Source of the DNA: Elusimicrobia bacterium GWA2_61_42
Lineage (GTDB): Bacteria > Elusimicrobiota > Elusimicrobia > Elusimicrobiales > UBA9959
Direction: 5' to 3'
DNA: 64,000 nt
NCBI GenBank assembly: GCA_001799615.1
Contig: MGTU01000027.1
Span: forward strand, 27,451 to 91,450
The position numbers were made by a program, and so were the translations under genes. The notes beneath the pieces are model-generated. The model had not been told where the DNA came from. It saw only the letters and a program-made list of their open reading frames with translations, and did no database searches. Below, in pieces: positions 12,732 to 23,931 of the stretch; the first letter of the stretch is position 1; the number at the start of each line of letters is the position of its first letter.

Positions 12732-13442
12732 ATGCCGCAATATTTCATCCCTGCTGAAAACCTGCGCGGCGGCGAATTCTTCGCCGGGCCGGAGGAATCC
12801 GCCCATATCGCGCGCGCGGCCCGCGCCCGCGCGGGGGACGAAATAGAGATCTTCGACGGCAAAGGCAACCGCTACCGCGCCGTCATCAAAACCGTCTCCG
12901 GGGACGCCGTGAGCGGTTCCGTCGGGGAGAAGCTGCCGAGCCCGGCATACAAGACCAGGATCACGCTTTGTTTCGCCGTGGTGGCCAAGCCGGCGCTGGA
13001 AGAGATCCTTGAACACTGCACGGAGGCCGGGGTGGACGTGTTCCAGCCGGTGATGGCGTCCCGGGTGCAGTTCGACCTGTTCAGCGACTGGGAGCGCAGG
13101 GCCGGCCGCCTGAACCAGGTGGTGCTGGCCGCCGCAAAGCAGTGCGGCCGCGGGCTGCTGCCGGCGGTGAGAAAGCCGGAGAAGCTCGACGACCTGCTGC
13201 TGGCGGGCGGGGTTTCGGTCTTTTCCACGGCCGAAGGGCCGGCCCCGGACGAGGCCGTAAAAGGGCTTGAAGGCAAAACGGAACTGAAGCTTTTTGTGGG
13301 GCCGGAGGGCGGCTTTACGAAAGGCGAGCTGGCTTTCGCGCGCGACAAGGGCGCCGTAATGATGAACCTCGGCTTATATACCCTGAGGGCGGAATCGGCC
13401 TGCCTGGCCGCCACTTCCGCCCTGCTTACCCGGCTGGGTTAA
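12732..13442 (+). CDS. rsmE: 16S rRNA (uracil1498-N3)-methyltransferase RsmE
   Basis: 236 aa. MPQYFIP..., PUA-like N-terminal domain, C-terminal SPOUT motif FVGPEGGFTKGE...LGLYTLRAE. Confidence 0.85.
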   Translation: MPQYFIPAENLRGGEFFAGPEESAHIARAARARAGDEIEIFDGKGNRYRAVIKTVSGDAVSGSVGEKLPSPAYKTRITLCFAVVAKPALEEILEHCTEAGVDVFQPVMASRVQFDLFSDWERRAGRLNQVVLAAAKQCGRGLLPAVRKPEKLDDLLLAGGVSVFSTAEGPAPDEAVKGLEGKTELKLFVGPEGGFTKGELAFARDKGAVMMNLGLYTLRAESACLAATSALLTRLG

Positions 13443-13888
13443 GTATTAGGGATCCCCGTAGTTTTATTGGTGCCCGCGAGCCTTTTGAAGGTGGCGCGCA
13501 GCAGCATTTTCTCTTTATCCGCTTTTTCCAATATTTGGGTGACGGCGCGCCTGAGCTCGGCTATCGAGATGGGTTTGTTCAGGAAAAGCTCGGCGCTGGC
13601 GCCGAGGTTGCTCTCTATCCTGGCGTCGTTGGTGGTGTTGCCGGTAAGTATTATTACGGGGGTGGAGCGGGTGCGGGGATTGCCTTTGATGGCCCGGCAG
13701 ACTTCTACGCCGTTTATATCCGGGAGCCCCAGGTCTATGATAGCGAGGTCCAGGCTCACTTCTTTTATCCAGTTCATGGCCGTTTCGCCGGTGTCGGCGG
13801 TTATGACCATATAACCCTGCGATTCCAGCGCTTTTTTCAGGATCTGCAGGACGGAAGTCTCGTCCTCTACCACTAATATCTTATGCAT
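13439..13888 (-). CDS. single-domain response regulator (receiver only)
   Basis: 149 aa. KILVVEDE, phospho-acceptor context LAIIDLGLPDING, PVIILTG, NKP. No output domain. Confidence 0.85.
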   Translation of the reverse strand: MHKILVVEDETSVLQILKKALESQGYMVITADTGETAMNWIKEVSLDLAIIDLGLPDINGVEVCRAIKGNPRTRSTPVIILTGNTTNDARIESNLGASAELFLNKPISIAELRRAVTQILEKADKEKMLLRATFKRLAGTNKTTGIPNT

Positions 13889-14087: not shown

Positions 14088-14396
14088 ATGATAGATCTGA
14101 AACCTATTTTTCTCAGAAAAGTTAAAAATATCCTGGCCGGCAACGTGCCGGAATACGACGTTATGGTTTACGGCTCGCGCGCGGACGGCACGGCGAAGAA
14201 ATACTCCTATCTCGATATAGCGGTGATGTCGGACAAGCCCCTGGTGGCCACGCGCCTTGAAAAGCTTTCCGCCGAATTTACCGCGGCCGGTTTTCCTTTC
14301 CGGGTCGAGACCATAGACTGGGCCGCCACGGGCGCCAGTTTCCGCAAAGAGATCAAGAAGACCGGCGTCTTCATCCAAAGCACCCCTAAAAAATAA
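14088..14396 (+). CDS. minimal nucleotidyltransferase (MNT / Pol-beta-fold) domain protein, copy 1
   Basis: 102 aa. VMVYGSRADGTAKKYSYLDIAVM fits hG[GS]-x(9-13)-D-h-[DE]-h, except the first acidic residue is Tyr. Confidence 0.7.
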   Translation: MIDLKPIFLRKVKNILAGNVPEYDVMVYGSRADGTAKKYSYLDIAVMSDKPLVATRLEKLSAEFTAAGFPFRVETIDWAATGASFRKEIKKTGVFIQSTPKK

Positions 14397-14403
14397 CGGC
14401 TCT

Positions 14404-14712
14404 ATGATAGACCTGAAACCTATCTTTTTAAAGAAAGTGAAGGGCATCCTCGCGTCCAACGTGCCTGAATTCGACGTGATGGTCTACGGCGCGCGGGCCG
14501 GCGCCTCGGCCAAGAAGTTCTCGTACCTGGATATCGTGGTGATGTCGGACAAGCCGCTTTCGGCGGCCCGGCTCGAAAAACTGGAAGCCGCCTTCAAGGC
14601 CGCCTCCTTCCCTTTCCGCGTGGAATCCATCTGCTGGGCCGCCACCGGCCCCAGCTTCCGCAAAGAAATAAAAAAAACCGGCGTCCTCATCCAGACCGCA
14701 CCTAAAAAATAA
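14404..14712 (+). CDS. minimal nucleotidyltransferase (MNT) domain protein, copy 2 (tandem paralog)
   Basis: 102 aa, collinear with copy 1 and mostly identical residue by residue. GS becomes GA (VMVYGARAGASAKKFSYLDIVVM). Confidence 0.7.
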   Translation: MIDLKPIFLKKVKGILASNVPEFDVMVYGARAGASAKKFSYLDIVVMSDKPLSAARLEKLEAAFKAASFPFRVESICWAATGPSFRKEIKKTGVLIQTAPKK

Positions 14713-17155: not shown

Positions 17156-19087
17156 ATGGACAGCAAAGACGGAAAAAAGAAAGAATCGATAGACGAAATA
17201 CTTTCGGACCTTAACGGGCTCCTGAACAAGATGCCGTCCATTCTTGACGGCATTAAAATGCCGGAGATAAAACCGGTTGAGTTCGTAAAGCCGGAACCTG
17301 TGCCCGCCCCGGAGCCGGAACCGGTTAAAAAAGACACCCCCGCCTCCCCGGACGCGGATAAAACTATTATTCTCGAAGCTTTTTCCGGCCTGCCCGAAGG
17401 CGCCGCGGCGCCGGAGGAAAAGCCCGTCGAACCCGCGCAGGACGCCGGCGACAAAACGATGATCATAGAAGCTTTTTCCAGGCTGCCCGAGGGCGCCCAG
17501 GCCCCCGAACCTGAAAAACTGGTGCCGCAAAGCCTTGGAGATTTTATGTTCGGTGAAGACGCGCAGGCGCAGAACGCCGAACAGCCCGCCGCGGAACCTG
17601 CCGCAGCGGAGCAGCCCGTTCCCACGATAGCCGAATTCACCCCTGCGGCCGACCAGAAGCCGGAGCCGGGGTTTGCGGAAGACGCGGAGGGTTTCCCCGC
17701 GATCGAGCCGGAAACGCCGGCAGACGCGCAGCCCGAACCGGAGAAGCCGGTGGCCGGCCTGTCCGCCGCTCACGCGTATGAAAGCACCAGGGATTTCGGC
17801 GTTCCCGACATAGACGCCCTGATGCAGCTTTCCGAAGGGGATATCAAGGACCTGACGGGCCCGGAGGCCTCGCTGGAGCCGGCCTCGGATCCCATGTCCC
17901 AGCCTGAACCGGACAAGGCGGAACCGTCCATGAACGAGCTGGCTGATTTTGAAAAACAGCTGAACGCGGCGGCGCCGCAGGGGGAAGCGATGGAGAACAA
18001 GCCGGAAGAACAAAAACCTGAAATTCAGCAGGAGCCGGAAGGCCTCGTACTCGAGCCTGCCTCAAAACCGGAAACCGGCTTCGAGGGCCTTACCATAGAG
18101 CCCGAAACCCAGGCCGCGCCCGAAGCCGCCCAAACTCCCGCCGGGGAGCCGGAAGGCCTGGTGCTCGAGCCCGCCTCAAAACCGGAAACCGGCTTCGAGG
18201 GCCTTACCCTGGAACCCGAAACCCAGGCCGCGCCCGAAGCCGCCCAAACTCCCGCCGGGGAGCCGGAAGGCCTCGTGCTTGAGCCCGCCTCAAAACCGGA
18301 AGCCGGCTTCGAGGGCCTTACCCTGGAGCCCGAAACCCAGGCCGCGCCCGAAGCCGCCGAAACGCTGCAGCTGGAACCGTCCAGCGCGGTCAACGCCGCC
18401 CCCGCCGCCGGCATAGAACTTTCCATCGGCAGCCAGCCTGAAGCGCAGCCTGCGGCCGTACAGCCCGAGCCCCTCCCCGCCGACAAAGCCGAGGAAACCT
18501 TGTCCGTAAGCCCCAGGGAACCCGGCCTGGTGCTGGAACCCGCCAGCGCGGCCATTTCCGGCTCCGCCGCTTCCGGGGACGAGACGCTCGTCATGCCGCC
18601 GCCTGCCGGCGGCTCCGGCGAAGAAGATAAGACCGTTATTTTTGAGGCGGGCGCCGGTCCCGGCGTTACTTCCCGCTCCCAGGCCGGGGACCTGGCCGGG
18701 CTGGCCGAAAGGCCCGTGCCCGAGGGCATTCCCGCGGAGCGGGTGAGATCGGTGTGCTTCTTTTACGCCTCCGAAGACAAAGCTCTGTGCGCCACGGTGC
18801 TGGCCGAGCTGGATTCCATCTGCCTGAAGTCCGCCGCCAAGCCTATGTTCGTAAAGCGCGCTTCCGTGCGCGAATGCGACCCCGAGATGAACGCCAACTA
18901 TATCCTGCAGACCGTTACCGACGCCGGCGGGCAGGGCCTGGTCTGCGTAGGGGCTATCCCGCAGGAGAAACTCTACGAGATCGAAACCGCGTTCAGCGGC
19001 TCGGGCGGATTTTTCCGGCATTATGACTCGGCCGGTTTCAGCCATTCCTCGGCGTTGGACCTGGTAACGGAGCTTATCCTCCGGTAA
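17156..19087 (+). CDS. acidic Pro/Glu-rich repeat protein with a structured ~116-aa C-terminal domain (hypothetical)
   Basis: 643 aa. N-terminal helix ESIDEILSDLNGLLNKMPSIL. Long P/E/A-rich region with DKTxIxEAFSxLPEGA x2 and a 38-aa unit x3. C-terminal region VCFFYASEDKAL...GLVCVG...ALDLVTELILR has alternating hydrophobic strand/helix periodicity. Confidence 0.7.
   Translation: MDSKDGKKKESIDEILSDLNGLLNKMPSILDGIKMPEIKPVEFVKPEPVPAPEPEPVKKDTPASPDADKTIILEAFSGLPEGAAAPEEKPVEPAQDAGDKTMIIEAFSRLPEGAQAPEPEKLVPQSLGDFMFGEDAQAQNAEQPAAEPAAAEQPVPTIAEFTPAADQKPEPGFAEDAEGFPAIEPETPADAQPEPEKPVAGLSAAHAYESTRDFGVPDIDALMQLSEGDIKDLTGPEASLEPASDPMSQPEPDKAEPSMNELADFEKQLNAAAPQGEAMENKPEEQKPEIQQEPEGLVLEPASKPETGFEGLTIEPETQAAPEAAQTPAGEPEGLVLEPASKPETGFEGLTLEPETQAAPEAAQTPAGEPEGLVLEPASKPEAGFEGLTLEPETQAAPEAAETLQLEPSSAVNAAPAAGIELSIGSQPEAQPAAVQPEPLPADKAEETLSVSPREPGLVLEPASAAISGSAASGDETLVMPPPAGGSGEEDKTVIFEAGAGPGVTSRSQAGDLAGLAERPVPEGIPAERVRSVCFFYASEDKALCATVLAELDSICLKSAAKPMFVKRASVRECDPEMNANYILQTVTDAGGQGLVCVGAIPQEKLYEIETAFSGSGGFFRHYDSAGFSHSSALDLVTELILR
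18032..18360 (+). repeat. in-frame tandem repeat, 114-bp period, ~2.9 near-identical copies
   Basis: GAGCCGGAAGGCCT... restarts at 18032, 18146 and 18260. Encodes EPEGLVLEPASKPE[T/A]GFEGLT[I/L]EPETQAAPEAAQTPAG. Confidence 0.95.
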
Positions 19088-19092
19088 CAACT

Positions 19093-20859
19093 ATGATAAA
19101 AAAGTGGGACGTGGCCCCGGCGCCGAGCGAAAATAATCCTGGCCGGCATAAGCTCCTGATCAAGGGGGAGATGAAAGACATCTTTCTCATAGTCAAGAAC
19201 CTGGGCAGCCTTTGTTCCCGCCCCGAAAAAACTACGGGTGAGTTTAACTTCATAATTTACCTGTCCAAACTCGAGATGGACACGATGAAGAAGCTGAAGT
19301 CCGTGGCGGCGGAACTTAGTTCCCCGGCCGCGGCCGAAGCCGATTCTTTCGGCGGAGAGCCGGCGCCTTTCGATACGCCCAAACCCACTCTTAAAGCCGA
19401 GTCCCAGCCCGCGCCCAAGGCGCAGCCGGCGCCCGTGCAGCAGCCTAAGCCGGCGCCCGCGCCGGAAATTAAAGCGGCTCCGGCCCCGGCGCCGCAGCCC
19501 GCCCCGGTACAGCAGCCCGCTCCCGCGCCCCAGGTCACGAGGCCGCCCGGGATGAGCGTCCCCTCTATCGCGGCCAGGGCCAGGAAGGAAGAAGAGGTCC
19601 CCGCCGCCGCCCCCGCTCCCGCGGCGGCCCCGGCCGCGGCCCCGTCCGGAGTTTCGGGCAGGATAAAGGCGAAGTGGTCCATGGAACTGCCGCTTATTCC
19701 GACCTACAGCTTCCAGACGCTGATAGCCGGTTCTCACAACCGCTTCGCGCATGCCGCCGCCATGGCGGTGGTGGAAAATCCCGGGGTGATCTACAACCCG
19801 CTGCTGGTCTTCGGCTCGCCGGGCACCGGCAAGACCCATTTCGTCAATTCCATTTCCTACGGGCTTTCCGCCTCCATCGGGCAGAGCAATATCTTCGTCA
19901 CCGACGGGATAAAGTTCTCAAAGGGCATAGAGCTCGCCCTCAAGGACGGCGGGCTGGGCCGGATCGAGGAGATCCTCTCCAAGGTGAAGGCGCTGATAAT
20001 CGACGACGTGCACCTGCTGATGGTTTCCGAAGCCAACAAGAAATACCTGTCCAAGTGGCTTAACGACTTCGTGGCGCAGAACAAGCAGATAGTAGTGACC
20101 TCCCTTTTTCCGCCGAAGTCGCTGTCCGGGCTGGAGGACGCCGTCGGTTTCCAGTTCACGCAGGGCTGGATGGTGGACCTTAAGATGCCTAACGCTCAGG
20201 CCTACAAATCCATCATAACGCAGCTGCTGCAGGGCCTGGAGGTCAAGCTGGCGGACGAGGAAATAAACGCGGTTTTCGCCAGCGGCATGATGCCTTTCGG
20301 CGACGTGGTGAAGACGCTCGAGGATATGAAAAAGCTCGAGAAGTTCCTGGTGAATTCCATGAACAGCGTCACGCACGCTCAACTGCTCGAAATGCTGCTT
20401 GGCCTCGGGGAAACGCCTATGCCCGGGGGGCTTACCGAAGACGACGCGCGCCAGGCTTCGGCCTGGCAGCCGACTGAAAAAGACACCTGGTTCAAGTGGG
20501 GGATCTTCTACCCCAAGGGGTTGCGCCGGGAGGCGGAGTACGCGCTGTATTCCCTGCACGAGCGCGCCAAGGAACTGGGCCTCAATACCGATTGGAGCCA
20601 GGTTTTCCTGGAAGAATACAACTCCGACGAGCTTTATGGCATACCCTTCAAGATCGGCAATTACGCCAGCGAGCGCAAAGTCAACGGCGCCATAATTCTC
20701 GGGCCGCAGCCTACTTCAGCCCTCGGGGCGCAGCAGGCGGAGTTCCGCCATATAGCCTTCAAGATAATGGACAGTTTCCTGGTAAAAGGGGCCTGGCTGC
20801 CTTTGGAAAAGCTGAAGTCAAAGTCGGCCTACGCCAAAATCCTCATGGACCTGGTCTGA
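19093..20859 (+). CDS. DnaA-derived AAA+ ATPase paralog lacking DnaA domain IV, with a novel C-terminal domain
   Basis: 588 aa. YSFQTLIAGSHNRFAHAAAMAVVENPGVIYNPLLVFGSPGTGKTHF (DnaA domain III entry plus Walker A), ALIIDDVHLL (Walker B), QIVVTS (sensor I). No HTH/basic-loop domain IV. Pro-rich linker between the N-terminal domain and the AAA+ core. Confidence 0.75.
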   Translation: MIKKWDVAPAPSENNPGRHKLLIKGEMKDIFLIVKNLGSLCSRPEKTTGEFNFIIYLSKLEMDTMKKLKSVAAELSSPAAAEADSFGGEPAPFDTPKPTLKAESQPAPKAQPAPVQQPKPAPAPEIKAAPAPAPQPAPVQQPAPAPQVTRPPGMSVPSIAARARKEEEVPAAAPAPAAAPAAAPSGVSGRIKAKWSMELPLIPTYSFQTLIAGSHNRFAHAAAMAVVENPGVIYNPLLVFGSPGTGKTHFVNSISYGLSASIGQSNIFVTDGIKFSKGIELALKDGGLGRIEEILSKVKALIIDDVHLLMVSEANKKYLSKWLNDFVAQNKQIVVTSLFPPKSLSGLEDAVGFQFTQGWMVDLKMPNAQAYKSIITQLLQGLEVKLADEEINAVFASGMMPFGDVVKTLEDMKKLEKFLVNSMNSVTHAQLLEMLLGLGETPMPGGLTEDDARQASAWQPTEKDTWFKWGIFYPKGLRREAEYALYSLHERAKELGLNTDWSQVFLEEYNSDELYGIPFKIGNYASERKVNGAIILGPQPTSALGAQQAEFRHIAFKIMDSFLVKGAWLPLEKLKSKSAYAKILMDLV

Positions 20860-20862
20860 TGA

Positions 20863-22791
20863 ATGGTTAACGAATTAATAGGGGCCGGCGTCCTGGGCGC
20901 GACCGGGGCTTTCGGGGCCTACTGGTACCTTAAGTTCCGGGAAGTGCTGCCCATAGAGAGCCGCCTGCTCTGCGCGCAGAAGGATTTCTCCGATTTCACC
21001 TCCTTTACCCGGGAAACGATGGAGCGCGCTTACGCCCCGGAGCAGCCGGAGCATTACGGCGACATCACCAACTACTACCTGATAAAACTGCACAAGGTTT
21101 TCCCGGACAGCTCCATGCTGCTTTTTGAAAAAGGCCAGGGGCAGTGGAAGCTGGTAAACTACCTCAAGCATTTCAAGGTCGAACCTAAACTGCTGACCGC
21201 CTACAAGTGGAGCGCCTTCGACCGCAGTTCCTCGGAAGGGGAACTGCTGCGCTTCGACGACGTCCGCGCCGGGGATTACCAGGGCGTGGCGGAGCTGTTC
21301 TCGGTTTTCGACATCAAGGCGGCGCTGATGTGCCCTTTCCGGCCGGCCGGCGGAGCGCCGGAGCGCCTGATAGTGTTCGGCGCGCATTCGCCGGCCTCTT
21401 TCGACGCGGCCCAGCCTTACCTGCGTTTCGTTGCGTCCCAGCTTTCCTCCATCTCCAAAGTTTCAGACAAGGTGTTCGCGCTCAAAAAAGAGACCGACAA
21501 CCTTAAGAGCGAAGTCAGCGCGGTGGTCAAGGAGCTGGACGTGGCGGGCTCCCGCCTTATACAGCGGGCCCGCGAGCGCAAGGCGCTTTACGAGGTGGTC
21601 ACGAAGGTGACGGGCCCCGGAGGCGATTCCCAGAACGGCTGTTCGGCCATCCTCAATATCGTGGCCAAGATGGTGGAAGCCGACGTGGTGGCCTGCCTGC
21701 TTTTCGACGAGGCTAAAGGCGAGCTGGTGGTCAGCCCGGGCTCCTACGGCATCCCGGATTCCGAGCGCATGCTCTACAGCATCCCGGTCAGCAACCACGC
21801 CTCGGCCTCGGTGCGCACCTTCCTGGGCCGCAAACCCTTCATTACCGCGGACGCGCAGAACGATCCGGACGTGGTCGCCCGCTACGCCAAGCTTTGGGAG
21901 ATCCATTCTTTGATGATCGTGCCCATCTGCCTGCACGACCGGATCATCGGCGTGATGCGCGTGGGCAGCCGCCGTCCCGATTTCTTCACCCCGGACCAGT
22001 TGGAGTTCCTCACCATAATCGCCGACGAGCTGGCCATCATCATAGAGATGGTCACGCTTTACGAGAACCTTTCGAAGACCGCGCAGGAGCTGGCGCAGCT
22101 AAATAAGCTCAAGGACGAATTCCTCGCCACCGTCAGCCACGAGCTGAAAACCCCGCTGACCACCATAAAGGGCTTCGTGTCGGTGATCCTGAGCGGAGAG
22201 GTCGGCCCCCTCAACGAGCAGCAGCTTAATTTCCTTACCGTCACGGACCAGTCCGTGAACCGCCTTACGCACCTGATCTCCAACCTTTTAGACCTGTCGC
22301 GCCTCAACGGGAAAGTGGAGATGGAATTCCAGAAAGTGGACCTGGTGGAGCTGGTGCGTTCCTCGGTTTCCACCATGCAGCTCAAAGCGCGCGAGCGGAA
22401 AGTGTCGCTGGACGGCGCCGTGGCCAAGGACCTGCCTCATGTGCAGGCCGACGCCCGCTGGATAACCCAGGTCATAGACAACCTGCTGATAAACGCCATC
22501 AAGTACGCCGGCGAAGGGGCGAAGGTCAACATAAGCGGGACGGACAAGGGCGAAGCCGTGGTCATTTGCGTGGAAGACAACGGCCCCGGCATACCGCCGG
22601 AAGAGCAGAAGATGGTCTTCGATAAATTTTACCGCGGGAAGTCCAGCGCGAACCAGGTGCCCGGTACCGGCCTGGGGCTCGCTATCTCGAGGTCTGTGGT
22701 GGAAAAGCACGGCGGCAAGATCTGGGTCGAATCCAAGCCGGGAAAAGGTTCCAGGTTCTGCTTCGCCCTGCCGATATCCAAGAGTAAATAG
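20863..22791 (+). CDS. membrane-anchored GAF-domain sensor histidine kinase
   Basis: 642 aa. N-terminal TM segment and GAF-like regions. HisKA H-box FLATVSHELKTPLTTIKGF. HATPase N, G1 and G2 boxes (DNLLINAIKY, EDNGPGI, GTGLGLAI). Confidence 0.88.
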   Translation: MVNELIGAGVLGATGAFGAYWYLKFREVLPIESRLLCAQKDFSDFTSFTRETMERAYAPEQPEHYGDITNYYLIKLHKVFPDSSMLLFEKGQGQWKLVNYLKHFKVEPKLLTAYKWSAFDRSSSEGELLRFDDVRAGDYQGVAELFSVFDIKAALMCPFRPAGGAPERLIVFGAHSPASFDAAQPYLRFVASQLSSISKVSDKVFALKKETDNLKSEVSAVVKELDVAGSRLIQRARERKALYEVVTKVTGPGGDSQNGCSAILNIVAKMVEADVVACLLFDEAKGELVVSPGSYGIPDSERMLYSIPVSNHASASVRTFLGRKPFITADAQNDPDVVARYAKLWEIHSLMIVPICLHDRIIGVMRVGSRRPDFFTPDQLEFLTIIADELAIIIEMVTLYENLSKTAQELAQLNKLKDEFLATVSHELKTPLTTIKGFVSVILSGEVGPLNEQQLNFLTVTDQSVNRLTHLISNLLDLSRLNGKVEMEFQKVDLVELVRSSVSTMQLKARERKVSLDGAVAKDLPHVQADARWITQVIDNLLINAIKYAGEGAKVNISGTDKGEAVVICVEDNGPGIPPEEQKMVFDKFYRGKSSANQVPGTGLGLAISRSVVEKHGGKIWVESKPGKGSRFCFALPISKSK

Positions 22792-22800
22792 GGGAATTGC

Positions 22801-23931
22801 ATGAAACCTGCCAAGTTCACTGTCTCTGTAGCCGCCGTATTTCTGCTGGGCGCCTGCGCTCACGCGCCGGCCCCGGGTTCCTTCAAGTCCGCGCCCGAAC
22901 TGCTGACGGCGGAGGGCGTTTGCGCGCTCAATTCCCGCGACCTGGCCGCTTCCCGGGCCTGCGCCGTGCTGGACGCCGAGCGCAGCGCGGTCAGCCGCGT
23001 GGCGGCCCTCTACCTTAACGACGAGGCCCGCGTGGAAAAATCCTCGGTCCTGGAAAACAGCCTGCTGAAAACTCCGCAGCCTTACGTGGCCCGGTATGAA
23101 ATAATGTCCGAGGGGCAGGACGGCTCCTACTACCGCGTACGCATGAAGACCTGGATCTACCAGGGAAGGATAGCCTCGGAACTGCGCACGCTTAACCTTT
23201 CCGGGCCCGCCGCGGCCGGGCCGCGCGCGGCCTTTGTGCAGCGCGGCGCCGCCGCCCCCGCTTTCGCCTCCGCTTTCAAAGAGGCTTTTTTAAAGCGCTC
23301 GGCGGTGATCATCGAGGAGTTTCCTTTCGCCGCGGATCCCGCCGTCGCGGCCGGGGGCGAGGCCGCCCTGCTGCAGGCGGCCTCCGCTTCTGGGGCCGAC
23401 CTGCTGCTGGCCGCTTCAGCCGCCGCCTCCGCTTCGGGGGCGGGGATAAATACGGGCTTCTATCCCTCCAAGGCCGAAGCTTTTGTGAAAGTTTACGACG
23501 CCGCTTCGGGCAAACTTTTGCTGGACCTTTCCAGCCAGGCGAACGGCATGGATTCCACCGAGGCCGGCTCTTTCTCAAAAGCGCTGTCCGCGGCCGGCGA
23601 ACTGCTGGCGCAGGAGACGGCCGCCCGCGCCGAGCGCCTGGTCAAGCCTGACGCCGCTATTACGCTGAAATTCTACGGCGTTGAAAGCCTGGAATCCCTT
23701 GAAAAACTGAAAGCCCAACTGCTGAAGCTCGACGCGAAGAGCATGCGGCTGGATAGCTACGCTTCGGGAACGGCGCTGTTCCAGGTGGTGCCGCTCCGCC
23801 CCGACCCGCAGGAGCTCGCCAGTTCCGTGCTGCGCGGCGATTCGCTGGGGCTGGAACTGGAAGGCACCGGCGCGCAGGAAGTCGCTTTCTCCCTGAGGGT
23901 CAAGAGCAGGGAAGTGTTTTTGCAGAATTAA
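22801..23931 (+). CDS. lipoprotein, LPP20/FlgO-like N-terminal region (hypothetical)
   Basis: Lipobox FLLGAC. The segment RACAVLDAERSAVSRVAALYL...YYRVRMKTWIY resembles LPP20-type lipoproteins. First gene of three consecutive lipoprotein genes ending in CsgG. Confidence 0.5.
   Translation: MKPAKFTVSVAAVFLLGACAHAPAPGSFKSAPELLTAEGVCALNSRDLAASRACAVLDAERSAVSRVAALYLNDEARVEKSSVLENSLLKTPQPYVARYEIMSEGQDGSYYRVRMKTWIYQGRIASELRTLNLSGPAAAGPRAAFVQRGAAAPAFASAFKEAFLKRSAVIIEEFPFAADPAVAAGGEAALLQAASASGADLLLAASAAASASGAGINTGFYPSKAEAFVKVYDAASGKLLLDLSSQANGMDSTEAGSFSKALSAAGELLAQETAARAERLVKPDAAITLKFYGVESLESLEKLKAQLLKLDAKSMRLDSYASGTALFQVVPLRPDPQELASSVLRGDSLGLELEGTGAQEVAFSLRVKSREVFLQN

Follow-up and report, generated by a model that had tools for sequence, protein, structure and literature searches.

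The stretch of DNA analyzed here (hereafter the window) comprises 64,000 nucleotides from Elusimicrobia bacterium GWA2_61_42 (contig MGTU01000027.1, positions 27,451 to 91,450), a GC-rich (about 62%) chromosomal segment that carries two adjacent genes, A and B. Gene A encodes an acidic protein with a long linker, and gene B a protein of the DnaA family. The two genes are closely packed as an operon pair that is conserved in Elusimicrobiota, and the gene of a GAF histidine kinase (gene C) follows them; the pair is real, phylum-wide and undescribed. Both proteins end in C-terminal domains (CTDs) that are predicted to share one fold and that are probably remote paralogues from an ancient duplication. 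The explanation that we consider best overall, and that we put forward tentatively at close to an even chance, is that A and B pair through this shared domain to give a nucleotide-switched scaffold. An earlier reading of the same DNA (the original prediction) had drawn attention to gene A and to the likeness of the two C-termini.

A scan with the B alignment, made with one genome per species, yielded 80 loci, all of them from Elusimicrobiota or from unclassified metagenome-assembled genomes, except for one spurious DnaA match. In 72 of the 79 loci having upstream DNA, an open reading frame (ORF) with the A-CTD was found directly upstream of B in the same orientation, which confirms the co-occurrence of the two genes across genomes. 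In two further loci of the 79, A was slightly farther off, beside fragmented B ORFs. Three more distant loci also had A directly upstream of B, in a short form. These short A proteins (117–260 amino acids [aa], found by the A-CTD profile search) retained the N-terminal helix and a Pro-rich linker, and their genes stood in the context A-B-kinase-D-comM, with a gap between A and B of 0–2 nt or an overlap of 4 nt. In the window all four genes lie on the plus strand, separated by 5 nt (A to B), 3 nt (B to C) and 9 nt (C to D; Table 1).

The exhaustive HMMER search with the A-CTD gave an A family of 250 representatives at 50% identity. Among the best 150 of these, the match was always C-terminal and none had a DnaA-like module. 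Conservation across the family is confined to the N-terminal helix and to ~130 aa at the C-terminus, whereas the length of the intervening linker ranges from 33 to 655 aa. A word-indexed protein search with the A-CTD returned short or partial proteins only, and the acidic forms of 500–800 aa surfaced in the exhaustive search; the indexed search seems to pick up too few proteins rich in low complexity as candidates. For B, 212 relatives were found. Every taxon-labelled one was from Elusimicrobiota, and so were all the taxon-labelled homologues of the window proteins.

The DnaA likeness of the second gene, already stated in the original prediction, was borne out by its Pfam score (PF00308; Table 1). 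The AAA+ module of B retains a Walker A motif (GSPGTGKTH) and a Walker B motif (IIDDV), and it aligned with Bacillus subtilis DnaA (8bv3/8btg) over 178 residues with an E value of 4.5e-25. In this alignment the N-terminal "GSHNRFAHAAA" box is retained and, as we read it, B also appears to span the region of the initiator-specific insertion of DnaA. At box VII, the "LRSRF" of DnaA is aligned to "VGFQF" in B (LEDRLRSRFEWG opposite LEDAVGFQFTQG), and the position of the box VII arginine is occupied by Q or E in 13 diverse B homologues. No Pfam match to DnaA domain IV (Bac_DnaA_C) was found in B. The equivalog models gave scores far under their cut-offs: 131.2 versus 343.9 for DnaA (TIGR00362), covering aa 178–393 only, and 28.2 versus 194.8 for Hda (TIGR03420). 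Judging by these alignments, B is a DnaA-derived AAA+ protein in which the nucleotide-binding motifs were kept and domain IV was lost, together with the arginines of box VII.

The layout of B, with an N-terminal domain, a flexible linker and the AAA+ module, echoes domains I-II-III of DnaA. B differs from DnaA in box VII and in having no domain IV, in an N-terminal domain of an unrelated family, in the new C-terminal (beta-alpha)x4 domain, and in that the operon partner of its gene is a histidine kinase gene instead of dnaN. From Hda it differs in its equivalog score and in the absence of the arginine finger. A helicase loader of the DnaC/IstB type was considered and rejected: PF01695 gave 32.8 bits on a stretch where PF00308 scored far higher, and NF038214 gave 37.5 against a cut-off of 200. 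The N-terminal domain of B has three invariant residues (W5, R43 and P44). It had no Pfam match, and a PDB sequence search gave no significant match; the best one was the ACT regulatory region of phenylalanine hydroxylase, at chance level (E 0.035). By eye, its pattern of strands and helices would fit an ACT or ferredoxin-like fold.

Elusimicrobia have been reported to carry DciA inside the canonical dnaA-dnaN-recF-gyrB operon, and the DciA-carrying genomes, Elusimicrobia included, to have no dnaC/dnaI (PMC5109545). Because of this reported operon and the lack of dnaC/dnaI, B would be an extra DnaA paralogue, neither the initiator nor the helicase loader; a role as replication initiator is also improbable because B has no DNA-binding domain. 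It might still act on replication indirectly, by co-assembling with the true DnaA through its AAA+ face and capping or poisoning DnaA filaments, since it would bring neither an arginine finger nor a DNA-binding domain; the linker of A would then serve as a nucleic-acid mimic or a tether, and the kinase would tie in growth signals. Such a role would suit the long AAA+ alignment with DnaA, including the "GSHNRFAHAAA" box and the apparent insertion region, the replaced box VII arginines, and the canonical dnaA-containing operon that has been reported for Elusimicrobia at another place in the genome (PMC5109545). We consider it very unlikely, however. The locus sits between dnaK-dnaJ-rsmE and comM and no evidence ties it to oriC, dnaN or replication genes; B bears no Hda signature, and no clamp-binding motif was seen, though no formal motif search was made; and no replication protein but a histidine kinase is the constant partner of B.

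Gene A had no matches in Pfam, NCBIfam or PADLOC. As originally predicted, its ORF encodes an acidic Pro/Glu/Ala repeat protein that begins with a short helix, carries two DKT motifs and a looser third one (at aa 68, 99 and 491), and closes with a C-terminal region of ~116–135 aa (~116 in the prediction) that AlphaFold2 (AF2) models as a folded domain. The helix reads ESIDEILSDLNGLLNKMPSIL at aa 10–30; its hydrophobic residues are spaced 3–4 apart over aa 10–34, and the motif [DE]xIxxILSDL[DN]xIL is common to long and short members of the A family. The linker (aa 31–508) consists of 15.9% E, 15.1% P and 16.1% A and has a net charge of −73. We read it as probably disordered because of its composition, its repeats and its variation in length. 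It also contains a tandem repeat of 38 aa, on which the original prediction was silent; the 94% DNA identity of the 114-bp copies points to a recent expansion.

The looser copy of the DKT motif begins at aa 491 (EDKTVIFEAGAG). The general form of the motif, [DE][KR]T[IVLM][IVLMF], occurred 123 times in the linkers of 55 A-family members, compared with 0.3 expected from shuffled sequences, and it was found in 53 of the 55 proteins; the last copy lies a median of 19 aa ahead of the CTD envelope. Because of this excess, the motif is best taken as a true short linear motif and not as an accident of composition. The enrichment, together with the helix kept in long and short forms, indicates that features of the A linker are under selection.

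The AF2 models of the two CTDs were of high confidence, with a predicted local distance difference test (pLDDT) score of 92.3 and a predicted template modelling (pTM) score of 0.86 for the A-CTD, and 89.2 and 0.83 for the B-CTD. In model numbering, the strands (E) and helices (H) of the A-CTD are E22-29, H31-50, E57-65, H72-81, E86-90, H95-108, E111-115 and H122-134, and those of the B-CTD are E13-20, H24-40, E47-55, H63-73, E78-82, H89-107, E111-115 and H123-133. The eight elements thus follow in identical order and with similar lengths in both (beta1-alpha1-beta2-alpha2-beta3-alpha3-beta4-alpha4), and the models give the two CTDs the same (beta-alpha)x4 topology. The alternating pattern of strands and helices that the original prediction had seen in both C-termini is reproduced in these models, and its suggestion of a receiver-like fold is not: there are four strands instead of the five of CheY, a receiver profile aligned by hhalign with either CTD gave P = 0.2, and no Response_reg match was found in Pfam, so a CheY-like receiver was discarded.

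Foldseek against the PDB placed the MID domain of PIWI/Argonaute proteins first for the A-CTD (MIWI MID, TMq/TMt 0.63/0.70, where TM is the template modelling score), followed by lumazine synthase and CheY. For the B-CTD it gave lumazine synthases (TM about 0.62) and the MID domains of SIWI, MjAgo, AaAgo and hAGO2, with TM 0.53–0.59 against those of SIWI, hAGO2 and MjAgo. MID domains and lumazine synthase are thus the best structural neighbours of both models (TM 0.55–0.70 over about 115–150 aligned columns). The CTDs differ from them in sequence, with an identity of 10–17% and no sequence-level relation, and we do not claim membership of either family; no PIWI domain was found by Pfam in A or B. 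Neither CTD had a family match in Pfam, NCBIfam or PADLOC, and the A-CTD profile gave chance-level matches only against PDB sequences (eRF3, E 0.005). By their models and profiles, the CTDs appear to resemble the MID/lumazine-synthase fold and to lie outside any described family. Conservation of the B-CTD is far above that of the A-CTD (mean column identity of 60% in alignment A6 and 55% in alignment A2), and the B-CTD has many invariant aromatic residues.

The two CTD families were compared by hhalign. Profiles of 46 diverse sequences each gave a probability of 51.7% and P 1.5e-4 over 77 columns. With larger profiles (133 versus 155 sequences), the local score was 28.8 (probability 43%) and the global score 25.5 (P 7.8e-5), the latter over 118 columns end to end. 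In the end-to-end alignment the strands and helices of the AF2 models stay in register from one end of the domain to the other, and both families keep a G..P that follows beta3 as well as an xDL[IV] helix at the end. All controls were scored against the same A profile. Sixty column-shuffled B profiles gave local scores of 11.4 ± 2.1 (maximum 16.6) and global scores of 2.6 ± 1.8 (maximum 8.8); reversed profiles gave 16–17 and 10–11; two flavodoxin-like families, unrelated and taken from the same loci (CheY receiver, MiaB N-domain), gave 12–14 and 1–3; and 40 decoy windows from 13 conserved neighbouring families reached at most 23.6 and 8.1. Among the shuffled, reversed, flavodoxin-like and decoy profiles, the A-CTD and the B-CTD were each other's top match. 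The end-to-end score sets the pair clearly apart from all of these controls. The comparison of profiles returned a reproducible but borderline signal (P about 1e-4) rather than no similarity.

The most constant partner of B is the GAF histidine kinase immediately downstream, a gene that the original prediction had not mentioned. In at least 63 of 70 loci it comes directly after B, and the loci of a clade that has no A are among them. Its hydrophobic N-terminal segment looks, by eye, like a membrane anchor. The kinases of A-containing lineages have an extra, weakly GAF-like N-terminal domain (residues ~30–200), and the kinases of the clade without A (L076–L078 and L080) are shorter (488–543 aa) and without this domain; BLASTP of the two kinase types aligned them only from residue 204. 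A and the N-terminal domain of the kinase may therefore be functionally linked, on a correlation that has a single clade behind it. Gene D, which comes next, is an optional member of the cluster (54 of 68 loci).

In the explanation that we prefer, A would dock on B through the shared domain, either as a pseudo-symmetric pair or by being built into a CTD-mediated oligomer of B. That the CTDs mediate this association is possible, at somewhat less than even odds. ATPases of the DnaA clade assemble into ATP-dependent oligomers, and an assembly of this type formed by B would display many copies of the polyanionic linker of A, of its motifs and of its N-terminal helix. The outcome would be a nucleotide-switched scaffold or adaptor, whose state the adjacent kinase, putatively membrane-anchored and wholly cytoplasmic, would read or control. 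In favour of this explanation are the close packing and co-occurrence of the two genes, the common fold and the profile signal of the CTDs, the descent of B from DnaA and the selected features of the linker of A.

Several results weigh against this explanation. BLASTP of the two C-termini of the window gave nothing (E = 41), the HMMER profiles of the CTDs had no cross-match among the ORFs and proteins of the other family even at E <= 10, and the hhalign probabilities (34–52% overall) are under the conventional level of 90%. The PDB neighbours indicate a resemblance of fold only, because the Foldseek E values were modest (1e-4 to 1e-2). The homology of the C-termini that was originally predicted is supported in part, by the common fold and by a profile signal above all controls, and it is not reflected in BLASTP, in HMMER or in the hhalign probability, which was borderline (43–52%) with the profiles above. 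The same blank searches would be seen if the two domains were unrelated and had in common the (beta-alpha)x4 three-layer sandwich, a very widespread fold. The weak signal would then come from the pattern of hydrophobic strands and amphipathic helices, and A would be an operon partner by virtue of its helix and linear motifs and not of a shared domain. Rossmann-like folds recur frequently, and the best local score of a decoy is close to that between A and B. Convergence of this kind is nevertheless unlikely in our judgement, given that the global score is three times the best of the 40 decoys and more than twice the best reversed one (about 11), and that two true flavodoxin-like families of the same genomes reach only 1–3. 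It also leaves aside that the aligned columns agree with secondary structure predicted independently and with conserved positions, and that both domains are C-terminal and encoded in adjacent genes.

The distribution of A also weakens the idea of pairing, and with it the heteromeric module of scaffold and ATPase that the original prediction had suggested. In the most divergent B clade (25–30% identity; L074, L076–L078 and L080) no A-CTD ORF was detected within ±6 kb with iterated hidden Markov models. In these five loci B retains its CTD and the kinase follows, so the B-CTD must have a role or a partner independent of A; the invariant core would be B and the kinase, with A frequent yet dispensable because this clade is without it. 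In four of the loci (L076–L078 and L080) comM comes next after the kinase, and gene D was not detected in any of the five. Furthermore, no member of the A-B-kinase cluster was found described in the literature, and what the scaffold would recruit and what the kinase would sense are pure inference.

A partner other than A, as the clade without A implies, is the starting point of another explanation, in which the CTDs are homologous and bind not each other but a third partner or ligand common to both. This could be the homo-oligomer interface of the B-CTD, some domain of the adjacent GAF kinase, or a small ligand with a phosphate group, seated in the loop region that follows beta1/beta3, and A would be a competitor or decoy that tunes the assembly of B or its coupling to the kinase. 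The much stronger conservation of the B-CTD, with its many invariant aromatics, would agree with this, and so would the extra N-terminal domain of the kinase, which tracks A and is missing from the clade without A. That correlation comes from a single clade, however, and no ligand-binding motif was identified; we regard such mimicry as rather unlikely, though it is the foremost alternative to pairing through the shared domain.

A comparable division of labour exists in the polar organisers of the PopZ type, which have an N-terminal client helix, an acidic Pro/Glu linker and a C-terminal oligomerisation domain; the C-terminal module of PopZ is helical and not alpha/beta. A follows the same three-part logic, with a short helix, a long, variable, acidic Pro/Glu linker and a small folded C-terminal module. 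It differs from PopZ in having no Pfam match, an alpha/beta module, conserved linear motifs of beta type and an AAA+ partner gene, and it is not a member of the PopZ family. If the pairing model is carried further, A, B and the GAF kinase would make up a new, phylum-specific cytoplasmic organiser, in which the ATPase exchanged its DNA-binding domain for a pairing module shared with a polyanionic, motif-bearing and putatively disordered protein and became an ATP-driven, switchable scaffold or condensate wired to the kinase, for example as a hub of the cell cycle, of polarity or of replication coupling. This extension is speculative, and we think it improbable in its full form.

To our knowledge, AAA+ proteins of the DnaA clade are known almost only as DNA-bound initiators, regulators and helicase loaders. 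Here, a DnaA paralogue found throughout a phylum has neither a DNA-binding domain nor an arginine finger and is fixed in one operon beside a histidine kinase gene; in most lineages the operon also encodes an acidic, putatively disordered protein, whose C-terminal domain appears to be the same as that of the paralogue. The original prediction knew of no described system of this composition, and none was found in the literature on Elusimicrobia DnaA, DnaA-like paralogues and the cell division of Elusimicrobium minutum. If pairing is true, the chassis of an initiator ATPase would have been re-used as a nucleotide-switched scaffold, and there would be two new domain families, of which A alone has about 250 representative clusters. 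The idea can be tested experimentally, because E. minutum is cultured and carries the cluster.

Table 1. Position in the window of genes A to D, of their parts and of neighbouring features
Feature	Position	Strand	Description	Basis
Gene A	17156..19087	+	643 aa, ATG start; N-terminal helix, acidic Pro/Glu/Ala linker, predicted (beta-alpha)x4 CTD	ORF
A N-terminal helix	17183..17257	+	Amphipathic, heptad-like; ESIDEILSDLNGLLNKMPSILDGIK (aa 10–34)	Motif conservation
A, two copies of DKT[IM]I[LI]EAFS.LPEGA	17357..17497	+	aa 68–83 and 99–114	Motif positions
A linker, tandem repeat	18031..18363	+	114 bp (38 aa), 2.9 copies, 94% DNA identity	Tandem Repeats Finder, score 603
A, third, looser motif copy	18626..18658	+	DKTVIFEAGAG, just upstream of the A-CTD	Motif positions
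A-CTD	18680..19084	+	Predicted folded (beta-alpha)x4; 18737–19084 plus conserved PEGIPAERVR lead-in	AF2, Foldseek, hhalign
Gene B	19093..20859	+	588 aa, DnaA-family AAA+; starts 5 nt past the A stop codon	ORF
B N-terminal domain	19093..19320	+	Conserved, ~75 aa	Family alignments
B linker	19321–19674	+	Pro-rich	Family alignments
B AAA+ domain	19699..20175	+	DnaA type, aa 203–361	PF00308, 105.5 bits (cut-off 23)
B-CTD	20470..20856	+	Predicted folded (beta-alpha)x4, in place of DnaA domain IV	AF2, Foldseek
Gene C	20863..22791	+	GAF-HisKA-HATPase histidine kinase; N-terminal hydrophobic segment	Pfam
Kinase N-terminal region	20863–21470		Residues ~1–200	
Gene D	22801..23931	+	376 aa, lipoprotein-like N-terminus by eye	ORF; no Pfam match
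Genes after the kinase	22801–25554		Gene D, GNA1162-like, CsgG/LpoB-like	
Receiver-domain protein	13439–13888	−	Stand-alone, 149 aa	
First tandem gene	14088–14396		102 aa	Polbeta / NTP_transf_2
Second tandem gene	14404–14712		102 aa	

The genes around A-B-C-D are housekeeping genes. The cluster is flanked by dnaK-dnaJ-rsmE on one side and by comM on the other. Its 5′ neighbours are dnaK, dnaJ and rsmE, an orphan receiver, two small nucleotidyltransferases, a MiaB-like radical-SAM enzyme and a protein that Pfam assigns as zinc-ribbon/HEAT; on the 3′ side are GNA1162-like and CsgG-like lipoproteins, comM and a LysM protein. The idea of a defence system was dropped, as the PADLOC scan gave generic P-loop matches only and the context is housekeeping. 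Gene D and the GNA1162-like and CsgG/LpoB-like genes that run after the kinase are each variably present (44–55 related loci), and none of them was detected in the clade without A.

In the lineages with short A proteins (L085 1–5743, L086 1–5165 and L087 1–2392), a T2SSE-type (PilB/PilT-like) ATPase gene directly precedes A-B-kinase-D-comM, and upstream of this ATPase is a bacterial microcompartment (BMC) locus, with BMC shell, EutN, aldehyde dehydrogenase, DeoC and RpiB genes. This arrangement was not seen around the cluster of the window.

Upstream of the MiaB-like gene of the window are two tandem genes whose 102-aa products are about 75% identical by eye. The first one, which alone was scanned, matches the nucleotidyltransferase families listed in Table 1, and such tandem genes were found in only 13 related loci. 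The GAF kinase, otherwise an orphan, has a candidate partner in the stand-alone receiver protein, whose gene is on the other strand, ~7 kb upstream; a second locus (L001) repeats this arrangement.

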